A DNA stretch of 64,000 nt from a virus (lineage: Duplodnaviria; Caudoviricetes). Position numbers and translations under genes: made by a program. How positions within the stretch are numbered: position 1 is the first letter of the stretch; each line of letters opens with the position of its first letter. The stretch lies in IMG/VR virus record IMGVR_UViG_3300025735_000004, positions 1-64,000 of that record; one strand, written 5' to 3'. Below are positions 22,018-51,811 of this stretch, in pieces. The notes beneath the pieces were generated by a model. That model made no database searches and was not told the DNA's origin. It worked only from the letters and a program-made list of their open reading frames with translations.

Positions 22018-22581
22018 GACTGGCGGGTGTTACAAGCACCTCCAGTCAAGGTCTCGGGGTATCTCTGCTTAGCTGGCCGGGGTACGAGACCGGGTCTAAA
22101 AAGTATACGCGAACATTGATCGCGTGTTCAACCATGCCCGCCTCATCCCCGTAACCCTTCCATTGCGCGTCTGGATCAAGATGGGGCGTTCGTTCGCCTA
22201 TTGGGCCGCAGTGCGTAAAACCACCCACAAGGGGATCTTCTCAGGGTGGTCGGTATAGCCGGGAGGTACGAACCTGGAAACAGGTCGGGAAGGCAATGGC
22301 AGGGCGGCGTATTACCCAGACACAGGCGCCGTCGACTGTCCCAAAACCTACCCCCGCCGTGCGCCGAGAAGGGCCGAGGGCGCTTGTAACGCATAACCTC
22401 GAAAGCGCGGAACGCCAGCTGGGAGTGGGAGCCGGGAAACCGGGATTTCCCCATTGCGTGGAGTTGTGTGGAAGGCCTTTTTTCAAGGGCTGGACGCAGG
22501 GGCTCGCACGCCAGTGGGAGCAAAAAGGGGGCCAGCTTTAGGCGGCCCTCACAAGCGTTTGTACCCCCCGCCTTGGGGTAC
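22018..22581 (+). ncRNA. Candidate large structured non-coding RNA
   Basis: No credible ORF; nested helices, two GAAA tetraloop hairpins, G-U pairs that favour the plus strand (details in findings). Confidence 0.4.
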
Positions 22582-22701: not shown

Positions 22702-22896
22702 ATGTTGATACTGACCCGCCGTATTCACGAAACCATCATGATTGGCGACGACATCCGCGTCACAGTGCTCGGTGTCAGCGGCCTGCAGGTGCGCGTCGGC
22801 ATTGATGCGCCCAAGGGCGTCGATGTCCATCGCGAGGAAATCTACAACCGCATTCAGGCTGAAAAAGCTGATCTCGCAAAACTGGACCTAGACTGA
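22702..22896 (+). CDS. csrA: CsrA/RsmA family translational regulator
   Basis: [52 protein letters not shown]; AAGGAG RBS. Confidence 0.96.
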
Positions 22897-24393: not shown

Positions 24394-24843
24394 ATGGGCA
24401 AATGCACGACCTACTACGACGAACTGCGCTTTGACACTCGCGACCCCGAGTTCACCCATGTGTATTGCTTCATCCGGGGCGAGGGCGATTGCCCGTTCAT
24501 GGTCCATGGCTGGCATCACAAAGCGTTCCCCAAGACGCTCACCACCCACGAAATTTTCTCCAACATCTGGACCGGGCAGACCGACCCGATGACCTGGGAG
24601 CGCGAAGCGCCGCGGGCCGTCCTCACCCCGGCGATCTACAACCCCAACGATCGTGTGCCGGTGCCGGTCGAGCAGTTGCAGGCCTGGCGCGACAGCTTTA
24701 CCGCCTGGGACACCACGGTGTCCGGGGAAATGGCCGAGCAGATCACGGCGCACCTCACCTCGGTGACCCAGTGGGACAAGATTTGCCCGCACTGCCGCGC
24801 CCAGGACATGTGGAACCAGCACCAGCGGGAACAAAAGAATTGA
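24394..24843 (+). CDS. Hypothetical protein
   Basis: 149 aa with a CPHC motif. Confidence 0.6.
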   Translation: MGKCTTYYDELRFDTRDPEFTHVYCFIRGEGDCPFMVHGWHHKAFPKTLTTHEIFSNIWTGQTDPMTWEREAPRAVLTPAIYNPNDRVPVPVEQLQAWRDSFTAWDTTVSGEMAEQITAHLTSVTQWDKICPHCRAQDMWNQHQREQKN

Positions 24844-25298
24844 GCCAGGCGCCTGCCACTTGGGCCGCTGAAATGCAGGCCCTGCAGGACCAGATCGAGC
24901 AGCTGACGCTGGATCTGGAGTGTGCGCGGCGCAACGAGGCCGCCGCCACCTACTGGTATGGGCAGGATGACGGCGTGCGGGGGGCTTGCCTTCGCTGGGA
25001 GGAAGCGCTGACCAACCTGATCCCCAAGGACGGCACGATGCGCGAGCCGCTGGAATCGCTGTATCGCCGCACCGAAGTGCTGCGCCTGGATCTGGCCGCC
25101 GCCATCAGCGACATCGCCTTCCTGCGCGGCCAGCGCGATGGTTACGCCTCCTTGTTGGCCAGCGCCCTGCAGACCATCAACGCCTACTGGGTGCCGCACA
25201 ACGAGGCGGCCGAGACGCTTCGCACCGAGTTAATGCGGCGCCTGCTTACAGTCGTCAAAGCAGCCTGGGAGGCGCGGGTGGCAGGAGCCCACCCGTGA
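24840..25298 (+). CDS. Coiled-coil hypothetical protein
   Basis: TTG start overlapping the previous stop, 152 aa (alternative ATG 24873). Confidence 0.6.
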   Translation: MSQAPATWAAEMQALQDQIEQLTLDLECARRNEAAATYWYGQDDGVRGACLRWEEALTNLIPKDGTMREPLESLYRRTEVLRLDLAAAISDIAFLRGQRDGYASLLASALQTINAYWVPHNEAAETLRTELMRRLLTVVKAAWEARVAGAHP

Positions 25299-25522
25299 GC
25301 CCGAACTACGCGATCGAGCAGCGCCTGCGCCTGATTGATTTCCTGCTGGAGCACTACGGCCACGTCGGCCGCCCCGAGCTGTGCGACTTCTTCGGGATCA
25401 GCCTGCCGTGCGCCTCGCTGGACCTCACGATGTACCGGGAGGCCAACCCGGGGAATGCCGACTACGACTTCAAGAGCAAACGCTGGGTGCGTGCGGCGAC
25501 CTTCAAACCTCGATATTCCTGA
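25295..25522 (+). CDS. Stand-alone winged-HTH resembling the N-terminal domain of CapW-type WYL repressors (copy 1)
   Basis: EQRLRLIDFLLEHYGHVGRPELCDFFGISLPCASLDLTMYREANPGNADYDFKSKRWVRAATFKPRY; 75 aa, no WYL domain. Confidence 0.75.
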   Translation: MSPNYAIEQRLRLIDFLLEHYGHVGRPELCDFFGISLPCASLDLTMYREANPGNADYDFKSKRWVRAATFKPRYS

Positions 25523-25556
25523 CCGACAAGACAACTATAAATAGAAGGAACTGTTC

Positions 25557-25829
25557 GTGGAGAAAGACAAGGTTGTGGTAGGCCTGACCCCTTGCGGGCG
25601 GCCGAAGTTGACCTACGCCATGGAGCAACGCATGCGCTTCATCGACTTCCAGATATTCCACTACGGCCACATTACGCGCCGCCATCTGATCGACTTTTTC
25701 GGCGTGACCTCGGCCACTGCGACCCGCGATTTCGCCCTGTTCATCGAGCTGTACCCGGGCCAGATCAAGCTCCACACGATGACCAAACTCTACGTCCCGA
25801 CCAAGCAATACCAGCGCATTTTCCCCTGA
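25557..25829 (+). CDS. Stand-alone CapW-like winged-HTH (copy 2)
   Basis: EQRMRFIDFQIFHYGHITRRHLIDFFGVTSATATRDFALFIELYPGQIK; paralogous to the previous gene. Confidence 0.75.
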   Translation: MEKDKVVVGLTPCGRPKLTYAMEQRMRFIDFQIFHYGHITRRHLIDFFGVTSATATRDFALFIELYPGQIKLHTMTKLYVPTKQYQRIFP

Positions 25830-25860: not shown

Positions 25861-26151
25861 ATGGCAACGCGCATCTGGAAATGGCCCCTGCAAATGACCA
25901 CCGAACAAACCCTGGAACTGCCGATCGGCGCGGTATGGCTGGACGTGCAGCTGCAGGGCGGCGTGCCGCAGATTTGGTGGCTGTGCAATGCCAACGCGCC
26001 ACTGGAACCGCGCCACTTCGCCATCCACGGCACCGGCAACGAGATGCCGGACGACCCGGGCGAGTACCTGGCCACGTTCCAGACCGGCGCCTTCGTGTGG
26101 CACCTGTTCGAAGTTTTCACCCCCACCATCGAGCAAAGGAATGAAGCATGA
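25861..26151 (+). CDS. Conserved small phage protein (IWKWPL...GTG...YLATFQ...VWHLFE family)
   Basis: 96 aa, recognisable motif set. Confidence 0.7.
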   Translation: MATRIWKWPLQMTTEQTLELPIGAVWLDVQLQGGVPQIWWLCNANAPLEPRHFAIHGTGNEMPDDPGEYLATFQTGAFVWHLFEVFTPTIEQRNEA

Positions 26152-26816
26152 ATACTGAAATTCTCGCGATACTCGACCGCAGCGGTTCCATGTTCAACAT
26201 CGCGGAGGACGCGATCGGCGGCTACAACACCTTCCTCAAGGATCAGCAGGCGATCGAGGGTGAAGCGCGGATCACCGTCGTGCTGTTCGATGACCAGTAT
26301 GAGCTGCTGTACGCCGCCACGCCGTTGGCCGACGCCCAGCCGCTGACCGCGCAGACCTTCGTGCCCCGCGGCGGAACGGCGCTGATGGACGCGATCGGGC
26401 GCACCCTGCAGGTCGAAGGGGCACGGATCGCGGCCGAGGGCTGGGCCGAGAAAGTCATCGTCTGCATCACCACCGATGGTGGCGAGAACCAGAGCAAGGA
26501 ATTCACCGCGCCGATGGTGCGCGAACTGGTCACGGCGGCCGAGGCCAAAGGCTGGGCGTTTGTGTTCCTCGCGGCCAACCAGGATGCGTTCGCCACCGCC
26601 AGGTTCTACGGCATGAGCGGCGCCCACGCGCAGACCTTCGCCGCCAACAGCGCCGGGGTGGGGGAGGCTTACGCCAGCATCAGCAACGTCACGCGCAGCC
26701 TGCGCACCGGGCCGGAGGGGGCGGCGGCGGGTGCGCTTGAGTTACGCGATACGCTGGCCACGGCGCAGGCCGGGGTCACGCCGAAGAAGAAAGCCAAAGC
26801 GCAAAAAGGTGCGTGA
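26148..26816 (+). CDS. von Willebrand factor A domain protein
   Basis: ILDRSGSM MIDAS motif, GGTALMDA, ITTDGGEN. Confidence 0.9.
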   Translation: MNTEILAILDRSGSMFNIAEDAIGGYNTFLKDQQAIEGEARITVVLFDDQYELLYAATPLADAQPLTAQTFVPRGGTALMDAIGRTLQVEGARIAAEGWAEKVIVCITTDGGENQSKEFTAPMVRELVTAAEAKGWAFVFLAANQDAFATARFYGMSGAHAQTFAANSAGVGEAYASISNVTRSLRTGPEGAAAGALELRDTLATAQAGVTPKKKAKAQKGA

Positions 26817-27055: not shown

Positions 27056-27349
27056 GTGAGCGGGACCAAAGCATCACCGGAAATTGAATACCTGGGGCAG
27101 TTCATGTACGTCCAACGCAAGGCCCTGCGCCTGACGTTGGACGAAGTGGCCACAGGAGCCGGCACGTCGAAATCCTACCTGTGGGAGATCGAGCACGGGC
27201 AGGCGTCACCCTCGTTCATGTTGGTCGCCCGCTTGTGCCAGGTCTTGTGCCTGGACATCGGCGGGCTGGCCGCTGGATCGTTGAAAGTGGCTGAGCTGTG
27301 CGGGGAGGTCGAGCAAGATCCGGGGCGGCTTCATCGCGCCGGGGCTTGA
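27056..27349 (+). CDS. XRE family HTH transcriptional regulator
   Basis: RKALRLTLDEVATGAGTSKSYLWEIEHGQASPS. Confidence 0.9.
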   Translation: MSGTKASPEIEYLGQFMYVQRKALRLTLDEVATGAGTSKSYLWEIEHGQASPSFMLVARLCQVLCLDIGGLAAGSLKVAELCGEVEQDPGRLHRAGA

Positions 27350-27449
27350 TTGACCCGACAACGAGCGAAGCGAGGCGTCAGGCTTTTCGGGGCCTCTGAA
27401 AACACCCCTATATTAAGACTAAGAAGGGAAATCGCTACAGCCCTTTGTT

Positions 27450-27735
27450 TTCAAGGGGGTCAGTCTTGAATTTCTGGACTACTTGTTTAGAAACTCAAGA
27501 CTTTTTACTTGAATAAATGGCCATATCCAAGTGTTATGTATAGAATTTGTGCTTAAATTCAACGAAACCGTTTTGAAGTTCAAGTGATTGGTCTTGAAAT
27601 TGCCCCATGATTTCAACGTTTGCGCTGAGAAGTTCTAACAAAACGGTGCGAAAACACCCCCCAAATTCAAGAGTGGGGGCCAGAATACCCCAACGAATCC
27701 AAGAAATGACTGGAATTCAACGTGACTGAGAAGAA
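27450..27735. repeat. AT-rich putative origin with about 11 phased TTC-N14-GAA palindromic boxes
   Basis: Boxes start at 27450, 27472, 27494, 27526, 27558, 27579, 27612, 27633, 27666, 27698 (weak) and 27716; consensus TTCAAG-N8-CTTGAA; directly upstream of rep. Confidence 0.75.
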
Positions 27736-28348
27736 AAAGTCCTACTACACCTCCCGGGCCGACGTGGTGCCCACTCGACATAACCCATGGGCGGGTGAGT
27801 TGGCACACACGATCAAGAAAGGGAACAAGGTCACCGGCTTTGCCAGCTCCAAGCACGCCTTGGTGAACCAAGCTACCGGCGAGGTGATGACGGACGACAT
27901 CGCCCTGGTGGGGGTGCGCAAGGTAGTGGACAAGGAAGAGTTCATCAAGTTTTTCGGGGCAGGGATCATGGAGGTGTTCGAACTGACCACCCCGGCCAAA
28001 GACGTGTTCAAGGCGATCCTGAACGTGTACTTGGACCAGAAAAACCAGCCGGATCAGCTGTACCTGAACTACGACGAAATCAAAGAGATTTATGGCTACG
28101 GAAAGTCGCCCTCGACCTACTACAACGGTCTGAACGAACTGATCGTGAAAGGCTTCTTGGCCCCGGTGCAGTTCCGCGAAAGCCACTACTGGGTCAACCC
28201 GAACCTGTTCTACAAAGGCGACCGTATCCGTATCGTGCGCGAGTACGTGCGCGCCGGGACCAAGGCGGCCAAGCAGGTGGAGAAGGAGAACGCCGCGCTG
28301 AATCAGCTGGGGCTGCCGCTCGATGGCCCCATCATCGACACGGTATAG
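27722..28348 (+). CDS. RepL-type replication initiator (winged helix)
   Basis: LVNQATGEV N-terminus, STYYNGLNELIVKGFL helix, YWVNPNLFYKGDR signature of RepL-family proteins. Confidence 0.75.
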   Translation: MTEKKKSYYTSRADVVPTRHNPWAGELAHTIKKGNKVTGFASSKHALVNQATGEVMTDDIALVGVRKVVDKEEFIKFFGAGIMEVFELTTPAKDVFKAILNVYLDQKNQPDQLYLNYDEIKEIYGYGKSPSTYYNGLNELIVKGFLAPVQFRESHYWVNPNLFYKGDRIRIVREYVRAGTKAAKQVEKENAALNQLGLPLDGPIIDTV

Positions 28349-28367: not shown

Positions 28368-28510
28368 ATCAGGGACAGATTTATGGTCGTGCCGGAATCT
28401 CTCCCTAATGGGACCCCACTGGACACCCGTTTGCCCCAGTAGAACCGGGGTGTTCACGCGCCTAGCCGGAATCTCTCCCCGATAGGTTCATCAGGGACAG
28501 ATTTATGGTC
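28368..28510. repeat. Two interleaved direct repeats (A-B...B-A)
   Basis: A = ATCAGGGACAGATTTATGGTC at 28368 and 28490; B = GCCGGAATCTCTCCC at 28391 and 28465. Confidence 0.9.
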
Positions 28511-34940: not shown

Positions 34941-34980
34941 CATGAACCATGAATTCACAGTTCATGGTTCACAATTCACA
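34941..34980 (+). repeat. Heptad array (2 inverted + 4 direct)
   Basis: CATGAAC CATGAAT/ATTCACA GTTCATG GTTCACA ATTCACA. Confidence 0.9.
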
Positions 34981-51002: not shown

Positions 51003-51371
51003 ATGTCTAAACTTGCAGAGTTCCGCGCTGCGGAAGAACAGCTGGGCAAACAACTGGCGGCCTTGGAAGAATTACGAAACGACATCGGCCTCAAGCGTGA
51101 ATTGGAATTTGATTCGGCGTTGAAACGCCTGATGGCAGACTACGGCGTGAGCGGCGAAACAGTGGCGATTCTCGTGGGTGTAGAGTCTCGACCTGCGGCA
51201 GGTAAAGCCACTGGGGGCAAGCGCAAAGTTAACAACCGGGAGGCGGCCAAGACGTTCCTAAACCCGCACACCGGCGAGAGCCTGACGATCAAACGCCTGA
51301 CCAATTCTAAGTACAAAGAATGGGCTGCGAAGTACGGCGAAGTCATCGTACACACCTGGCTGCAAGACTAA
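51003..51371 (+). CDS. MvaT/TurA-like H-NS family protein (copy 1)
   Basis: MSKLAEFRAAEEQL...ELEF..LKRLMADY N-domain; NPHTGE...KEWAAKYG C-domain. Confidence 0.88.
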   Translation: MSKLAEFRAAEEQLGKQLAALEELRNDIGLKRELEFDSALKRLMADYGVSGETVAILVGVESRPAAGKATGGKRKVNNREAAKTFLNPHTGESLTIKRLTNSKYKEWAAKYGEVIVHTWLQD

Positions 51372-51403: not shown

Positions 51404-51811
51404 ATGTTTGAGAAATTCGCCGAGTACACTGCGGCAGAGTTAGCGCTGGCTAAACAAGTTACCGCCCTCGAAGAACTCAAGAACGACCCCGAGCTAAAGC
51501 AGGAGTTAGAGTTCAGCTTTGAGTTAGAGGCCTTGCTGTCCAAGTATTCGTTCAGCAAATCCAAGCTGTACGGCTTCCTTGAGGCGCAGTACGGGGCCGC
51601 CAAGGCCGCTGAAACGAAGGCGCCTAGCCCGGCTAAAGCTGGCAAAGCGAGCAAGGAAAAGGCGGGGTATGAAGGGCATAAAGACAAGCTCTGGACCAAC
51701 CCGCATACCGGGGAAGCCGTGAAGTCCAGACGCCGCGACCACAAGACCATCTTGGGGTGGATCGAAAAGCATGGCCTAGAAGAGGTCTTGACCTGGATGA
51801 AGCGGCTCTGA
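51404..51811 (+). CDS. MvaT/TurA-like H-NS family protein (copy 2)
   Basis: LEELKNDPELKQELEF..LEALLSKY; NPHTGE...HKTILGWIEKHG. Confidence 0.88.
   Translation: MFEKFAEYTAAELALAKQVTALEELKNDPELKQELEFSFELEALLSKYSFSKSKLYGFLEAQYGAAKAAETKAPSPAKAGKASKEKAGYEGHKDKLWTNPHTGEAVKSRRRDHKTILGWIEKHGLEEVLTWMKRL

Follow-up and report, generated by a model that had tools for sequence, protein, structure and literature searches.

Introduction

BrxR/CapW-type repressors are a main bacterial route to raised expression of defence systems after DNA damage or failed infection. CapW, a wHTH-WYL-WCX repressor of CBASS, has been solved from P. aeruginosa (7TB5), S. maltophilia (7TB6) and R. leguminosarum (9C5G), and BrxR, a regulator of BREX and defence islands, from E. 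fergusonii (7QFZ) and Acinetobacter (7T8K/7T8L). The protomers of CapW and BrxR are held together by crossing linker helices, the WYL domain and the WCX domain, and their winged helices (wHTHs) lie side by side, ~25 Å apart (PMC9122601, PMC9122588). Such regulators bind, as homodimers, a palindrome of ~20-27 bp that overlaps their own promoter or that of the defence genes, and they are encoded beside the defence system under their control. On DNA, BrxR makes base contacts at positions +/-6/7 and a wing contact at +/-10/11 (PMC9122589), and its Kd for a half-site is 24-85 nM versus 13 nM for the full site (PMC9122601). R17 of E. fergusonii BrxR (BrxR_Efer) is essential to DNA binding and repression (PMC9122601). 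For S. maltophilia CapW, the R32A substitution abolishes binding, and a triplet, S42/Q45/S47, has been described in CapW (PMC9122588). Induction through the WYL domain matters against prophage induction (PMC11662680) and in primed immunity (bioRxiv 10.1101/2025.11.13.688357).

The winged helix of these regulators also exists as a stand-alone protein in phages. Members of PF26109 (WHD_BrxR) such as gp088 of phage Sonora and gp136c of Salmonella phage Arash (109 aa) share this one-domain form. Their annotations read either hypothetical or, mistakenly, 'WYL domain-containing', the latter in the case of gp136c. A widespread phage family is made of the DNA-binding head of a defence regulator alone, and our literature search on stand-alone phage BrxR/CapW winged helices found no paper and no published function. 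Here we describe a phage locus with two such genes, A and B. New at this locus are the tandem pairing of a CapW-class with a BrxR-class domain, the optional presence of A, and a partner protein, U, with natural fusions. Tandem pairing and the U partner are both peculiar to this phage group.

Results

Two Winged-Helix Genes in a Phage Operon

The source record is 81,709 bp long, carries direct terminal repeats and is rated 100% complete. Bases 1-64000 of the record form the stretch of 64,000 nucleotides that was analysed (the window). The primase of the phage is ~27% identical to the primases of Pseudomonas phages Lana, PMBT3 and UAntarctica, and a megablast search of cultured phages with the A/B region gave no match. 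A and B lie within a rightward operon of 13 small early/accessory genes, which runs from csrA to a gene for an XRE-type HTH protein. The main features are as follows.

22702-22896, + strand: csrA, first gene of the operon, encoding a 64-aa CsrA homologue (Pfam CsrA, E 2.3e-25); kept in sister phages
24840-25298, + strand: U, 152 aa, all-helical, TTG start (alternative ATG at 24873), immediately 5' of A
25273-25297, + strand: inverted repeat, rich in GC (GGGTGG-N7-CCACCC), where U meets A, with the AGGAG ribosome-binding site of A in its loop
25295-25522, + strand: A, stand-alone WHD_BrxR winged helix, 75 aa, GTG start; recognition helix SLPCASLDLTMY, CapW class
25523-25556, + strand: A-B spacer of 34 nt holding the AAGGA of B; conserved in sister phages with both genes
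25557-25829, + strand: B, stand-alone WHD_BrxR winged helix, 90 aa, GTG start; recognition helix TSATATRDFALF, BrxR class
25861-26816, + strand: gene for a DUF7352 protein (96 aa), then gene for a VWA-like protein (222 aa; phrog_7371, E 1e-59), directly 3' of B
27056-27349, + strand: XRE-type HTH gene, last of the operon (PADLOC HTH_VI, E 7.5e-9; capH, E 3.1e-8)
51003-51371 and 51404-51811, + strand: two tandem MvaT-like proteins (MvaT_DBD, E 1e-3 and 1.7e-5, weak matches under the Pfam cut-off)

Upstream of csrA, no promoter-like site was called, and a scan for inverted repeats returned only one, GC-rich, at 22558. The neighbours of A and B are DUF7694, DUF7352 and the VWA-like protein, and otherwise proteins without a known family. 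When ten neighbouring proteins were searched with PADLOC, none matched except the XRE protein with its generic and capH-like match, and no anti-defence function was assignable to any neighbour using Pfam, PHROG or PADLOC. The best solved relative of the XRE protein is a 69-aa chain, 7t5u, which is presumably the N-terminal domain of CapH. Further, no M78/CapP-type peptidase was found in the phage genome. One sister phage (L006) has an additional ORF between B and the DUF7352 gene, suggesting that the 25861-26816 stretch is a mosaic accessory region.

An earlier note on this DNA had described two adjacent paralogues resembling the wHTH of WYL repressors. The coordinates were right, BLASTP confirmed the paralogy of A and B (42% identity over 62 residues, E 4e-19), and both sequence and fold matched CapW and BrxR as described below. 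The phage genome contains just these two copies of the domain and no third. B has an N-terminal arm of ~19 residues and its own ribosome-binding site, AAGGA. The pairwise dN/dS values of A and B versus sister phages were 0.16-0.58; therefore, both are maintained genes, and both are under purifying selection. A and B are anciently diverged, separately translated copies of one winged-helix domain.

A and B Are Winged Helices of the BrxR/CapW Type

Scans of A and B against Pfam (a set without PF26109), PHROGs, PADLOC and NCBIfam gave nothing usable. When the two proteins were compared with the PDB using phmmer, A matched P. aeruginosa CapW (7tb5) with an E value of 9.5e-11 and B with 3.8e-8, and both also matched CapW 7tb6 and 9c5g and BrxR 7qfz and 7t8k. 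The matches always fell at chain residues ~5-92, the N-terminal part of chains of ~290 residues. Homologues at 76-91% identity to A carry a precomputed assignment to PF26109; the membership of A and B in this family is read from these homologues and from solved members.

The AF2 model of B (pLDDT 90, pTM 0.79) contains helices at residues 20-36, 41-48 and 52-65 and strands at 70-73 and 78-81. In a Foldseek search with this model, ranks 1-13 were all BrxR or CapW (0.7-1.2 Å over 68-74 columns), the best match being BrxR (E 3.4e-7; 0.9 Å over 74 columns), and other winged helices were found only at E >= 2e-2 and ~3 Å. The A-type domain, taken from the AF2 model of a fusion protein described below, matched BrxR 7qfz with Z 16.0 (1.2 Å over 75 residues) and CapW 7tb6 with Z 13.7 (0.6 Å over 74). 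Here the Z values for BrxR/CapW were 16.0, 13.7, 13.3 and 11.0, compared with 8.4 or less for other winged helices. Thus the match to the CapW fold, on which the earlier note had let its proposal depend, was found for both domains: CapW has the same winged helix at 0.6-1.3 Å, and BrxR is the best fold match of both. A and B are each a winged helix of the BrxR/CapW type with nothing after the wing.

Both chains stop 9-10 residues past the wing. The WCX/BrxR_CTD domain and the crossing linker helices are absent from A and B by length; full-length P0045, for comparison, has the architecture WHD_BrxR+WYL+BrxR_CTD. A search with the WYL profile (PF13280) found no match anywhere in the 81.7-kb genome, whereas control genomes gave matches. 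It was therefore correct that both proteins end before any WYL domain. Because the WYL/WCX sensor is absent, DNA binding by A or B, if any, would not be relievable by ssDNA as it is in CapW and BrxR, which agrees with the ligand-insensitive binding that had been proposed. The description 'sensor-less' holds in that neither A nor B has a WYL or WCX domain, but it is only half true for A, to which U is fused in relatives. A and B further differ from CapW in being phage-encoded with no adjoining defence operon, and in the U fusions of the A lineage the winged helix is C-terminal, the reverse of the CapW order.

B Is the Core Member and A an Optional Second Copy

B was present at 76-100% identity in eight IMG/VR loci, and A in most of them. 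In L006 and L007, the syntenic slot lacks A and U directly abuts B; the L006 record, which is 55% complete, has one copy of the domain. Among the loci compared, tandem pairs occur in this phage group alone, and elsewhere the gene is single. B is the conserved, core member and A an optional accessory second copy. An A-B heterodimer, a possibility raised earlier, is unlikely to be obligate because B occurs without A in two sister phages.

U lies immediately upstream of the WHD_BrxR gene in every phage of the group. It has no family in Pfam, PHROG or PADLOC, and no relatives outside the phage group were found among Atlas features, with an HMM over the gathered proteins or in a search of 5.8 billion proteins. 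The 26 U-like clusters were all from this phage group, and one of their proteins (P0175) is 152 aa long and 99% identical to U. In at least four relatives (P0172-P0174, P0193, L003:3321-3965), U and the A-type domain form one polypeptide. These fusions are 215-232 aa long and in frame, and their junction is exactly at the point where, in the window, the stop of U and the start of A overlap as GTGA. The AF2 model of the U-A fusion (pTM low, 0.42) shows the wHTH after five long helices, and a fold search with the helical part of U returned only generic helical hairpins with Z about 7. Natural fusions are classical gene-fusion evidence, which suggests that U and A work together; to judge from these sequences, U is the evident partner of A. 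U probably supplies oligomerisation to A.

The GTGA overlap in the window suggests that A is translationally coupled to U. We rejected a programmed -1 frameshift as the link between U and A: a slippery heptamer is missing, the hairpin is located upstream, and coupling through the overlapping stop and start codons explains the junction more simply.

Stand-Alone Relatives of A and B

An exhaustive HMMER search of 1.84 billion representatives with B gave 331 matches at E <= 1e-3. The best of these were proteins of 73-120 aa with the domain at the C-terminus, and full-length matches of ~280-308 aa appeared from E about 5e-9 downward. Among 173 gathered proteins, 75 were short, 13 had an N-terminal extension before the domain, 28 were full-length and 57 were C-extended, many of the last probably being contig-end fragments.

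We then examined a maximum-likelihood tree of 171 domains; based on 81 columns and with many open forks, it supports the main division but is no guide to finer branching. A and B were both inside one clade of 78 rows (SH-aLRT 93), comprising 60 short, 12 N-extended and 5 C-extended proteins and 1 full-length protein. The sister clade (57 rows) consisted of full-length regulators and their fragments. A and B were not sisters, and closer relatives of each were found elsewhere in the tree. Because the stand-alone forms constitute a clade of their own, apart from the full-length wHTH-WYL regulators, A and B appear not to be recent truncations of a host repressor but members of an old clade borne by phages and prophages.

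When a narrower alignment of the family was used as the query, only four prophage-type loci were found. Stand-alone members occurred in the orders integrase-WHD-MvaT-like...primase and DNA polA...WHD...tail genes, and in a Dechloromonas prophage the WHD gene was followed by an Xis-like gene and then an integrase. In the lytic Stenotrophomonas phage Sonora, gp088, to which A is 59% identical, lies amid a run of small genes. These contexts are ordinary regulatory or early regions of phages and prophages. Further, in a 145-aa protein (P0034; L020:2565-3002), a CI/XRE-type HTH is naturally fused to a WHD_BrxR domain at the C-terminus; its gene lies next to the primase of a 46-kb element with integrases, and zinc-ribbon-like N-terminal extensions are present in some family members. 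The fusions with CI/XRE-HTH, zinc-ribbon-like parts and U are modular, which is typical of phage regulators.

In Dechloromonas G002 (L028, L029), a stand-alone prophage WHD_BrxR of 73 aa occurs together with a full-length BrxR-type regulator (a 314-aa open frame). The pair is a natural setting for a test of operator competition, and the two proteins differ at the three mapped contact positions.

DNA-Contact Residues and Candidate Operators

R17 of BrxR_Efer aligns with R10 of A and R25 of B, the sole invariant column in an alignment of 62 family sequences. R32 of S. maltophilia CapW aligns with R26 of A and R41 of B, in a column that is nearly invariant. By alignment, the two arginines essential in BrxR/CapW thus correspond to the best-conserved residues of the A/B family. 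The CapW triplet S42/Q45/S47 corresponds to S36/C39/S41 in A and T51/T54/T56 in B. A therefore keeps equivalents of S42 and S47 as well as of R32, whereas Q45, the base-contacting Gln of CapW, is replaced by Cys throughout the A clade and by Thr in B.

The recognition helix of A, SLPCASLDLTMY, belongs to a CapW-like class, PQASLD[IL], and is close to SVPQASLDITEY of P. aeruginosa CapW. That of B, TSATATRDFALF (ATATRDFALF), belongs to a BrxR-like class, A[VG]ATRD[FL]ALY, and resembles the BrxR-class helix in full-length proteins; the HTH segment of B is 60% identical over 25 residues to full-length P0080 and P0060. The PQASLD and ATRDF classes each occur in stand-alone and in full-length proteins, and both are spread across the stand-alone clade. 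From these sequences, we infer that A and B bind DNA.

The BrxR operator of pEFER, read off the plasmid record, is GAAACCTACTG-N5-CAGTAGGTTGC. In 400 gammaproteobacterial genomes, ATCATCA-N1-3-TGATGAT was found upstream of full-length genes of the AAATRD[IL] subfamily (L034, L035, L038), and AATACTTTTTA-N5-TAAAAAGTATT upstream of those of the AAATKDLKLY subfamily (L048, L053, L055), both operator-like palindromes lying ~100-115 nt 5' of the wHTH-WYL genes. Thus operators differ between full-length subfamilies despite their look-alike recognition helices, and the operators of A and B are therefore not predictable from helix class. Neither the pEFER site, its half-site nor the two operator-like palindrome types occurred in the window, and an inverted-repeat scan of the window showed that no BrxR-geometry palindrome recurs in the operon or close to it.

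The AT-rich intergenic region at 27350-27720 carries palindromes of the form TTCAAG-N8-CTTGAA, ahead of the following gene.

27722-28348: ORF of 208 aa, no family match

The window contains 8 such palindromes versus 1.4 expected, with four, within 2 mismatches, at 27494-27685. As the protein that binds them, the XRE protein or the 208-aa protein is at least equally plausible compared with A or B.

Discussion

We favour, at about even confidence, the explanation that A and B are constitutive regulators acting within the phage over the explanation that they silence host defences. Under this explanation, A and B would recognise specific dsDNA sequences and thereby regulate the phage's own programme. 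Having neither WYL nor WCX, they would bind constitutively, with no release by ssDNA. Phage promoters would be the targets, a proposal that covers an Aca-like autorepressor role for an accessory operon. B would be the core member and A a second copy that reads with a different recognition helix. Further, A would act with U, which would replace the oligomerisation given by WYL/WCX in CapW and BrxR. This explanation is favoured by the old, phage-borne clade, the ordinary regulatory contexts of its members, their modular fusions and the variability of host operators. Aca-type HTH autorepressors provide a parallel, by analogy only, as small DNA-binding proteins amid small accessory phage genes; in contrast to A and B, they belong to another fold family, and no anti-defence gene or operator was identified at the A/B locus.

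Several points count against such a role within the phage. No operator of BrxR geometry was found in or near the operon, and the sole nearby palindrome array could belong to the 208-aa or the XRE protein. The N-terminal domain of CapH alone does not bind DNA (bioRxiv 10.1101/2022.04.27.489752), and a lone HTH monomer may therefore bind poorly. The 81 columns and many unresolved forks of the tree also weigh against it, as do CsrA and the capH-like HTH in the operon and the two MvaT-like proteins in the genome, which would fit a module directed at host regulation. If A and B are ordinary phage regulators, the wHTH of defence regulators would be derived from, or held in common with, the phage regulator pool, and A and B would offer a simple monomeric model of DNA reading by this domain. 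The U-A fusion is a concrete, testable partnership and an entry point to biochemistry.

The earlier note had put first the possibility that A and B keep host defence operons off. As such anti-defence silencers, they would hold host BrxR/CapW operators and, having no ssDNA sensor, keep CBASS, BREX or other systems repressed during infection. We consider this unlikely, although the HTH segments of A and B fall into the same two motif classes as those of full-length regulators and retain the DNA-contact arginines. The strong binding of BrxR to a single half-site (PMC9122601) and the dependence of defence on WYL-mediated induction (PMC11662680; bioRxiv 10.1101/2025.11.13.688357) would also suit a silencer. 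So would an operon that opens with a CsrA homologue and closes with a capH-like HTH in a genome without an M78 peptidase, and a phage that itself has no known BrxR-type operator, be it that of pEFER or of another full-length type. However, the stand-alone forms are one old clade and are not nested beside host regulators, and both helix motif classes are spread through that clade. Host operators vary strongly, from GAAACCTACTG-N5 in pEFER to ATCATCA-N1-3-TGATGAT and AATACTTTTTA-N5, and because they differ between subfamilies, a mimic would need to track each host. Further, the base-contacting Gln of CapW is Cys across the A clade, and in Dechloromonas G002 the prophage protein and the full-length regulator differ at the three mapped contact positions.

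A more specific version of the silencing proposal, which we regard as quite doubtful, treats the whole operon from csrA through U-A-B to the capH-like gene as a module that mimics host regulators. U would make A and B multivalent on WYL-controlled defence operators, and A and B, being unable to sense ssDNA, would block the infection-triggered up-regulation of CBASS, BREX or other systems. If it is true that A and B shut host defence operons, they would represent a new class of counter-defence, a transcriptional strategy so far undescribed.

It is improbable that A and B are DNA-binding accessory factors of replication or maintenance, for example on the palindromes before the 208-aa ORF. The TTCAAG-N8-CTTGAA array, with its excess of copies, lies 1.7 kb downstream, and the footprint of BrxR on DNA (PMC9122589) would accommodate a 20-bp palindrome whose half-sites lie at +/-5-10. 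However, this geometry is common to many HTH dimers, the XRE and 208-aa proteins are at least as good candidates, and family members elsewhere show no linkage to replication origins.

A dominant-negative action, offered earlier as an alternative, in which A and B would poison the host CapW/BrxR dimer as subunits, is very improbable: they have the wHTH fold in common with the host protein, but the dimer interface sits in the linker, WYL and WCX regions, none of which A or B has.

Other Repeats and an MvaT-Like Neighbour

The region 28368-28510, just past the 208-aa ORF, has two identical direct copies of a 21-nt sequence, ATCAGGGACAGATTTATGGTC (28368 and 28490), and two copies of a 22-nt repeat, GCCGGAATCTCTCCC... 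(28391 and 28465), are interleaved with them. Direct arrays of a 7-bp repeat ([AG][AG]TTCAC, three to four copies) are present at 34950, 38363, 38691 and 39383. Each array opens with an inverted copy that forms TGAATTCA, of which there are 4 in the window versus 0.3 expected. Direct 7-bp iterons are of the kind bound by RHH/omega-type proteins. We rejected the TGAATTCA-led arrays as operators of A and B, as they look like RHH-type iterons and not like wHTH sites.

In an unrelated contig (that of P0020), a WHD_BrxR gene also adjoins an MvaT-like gene.
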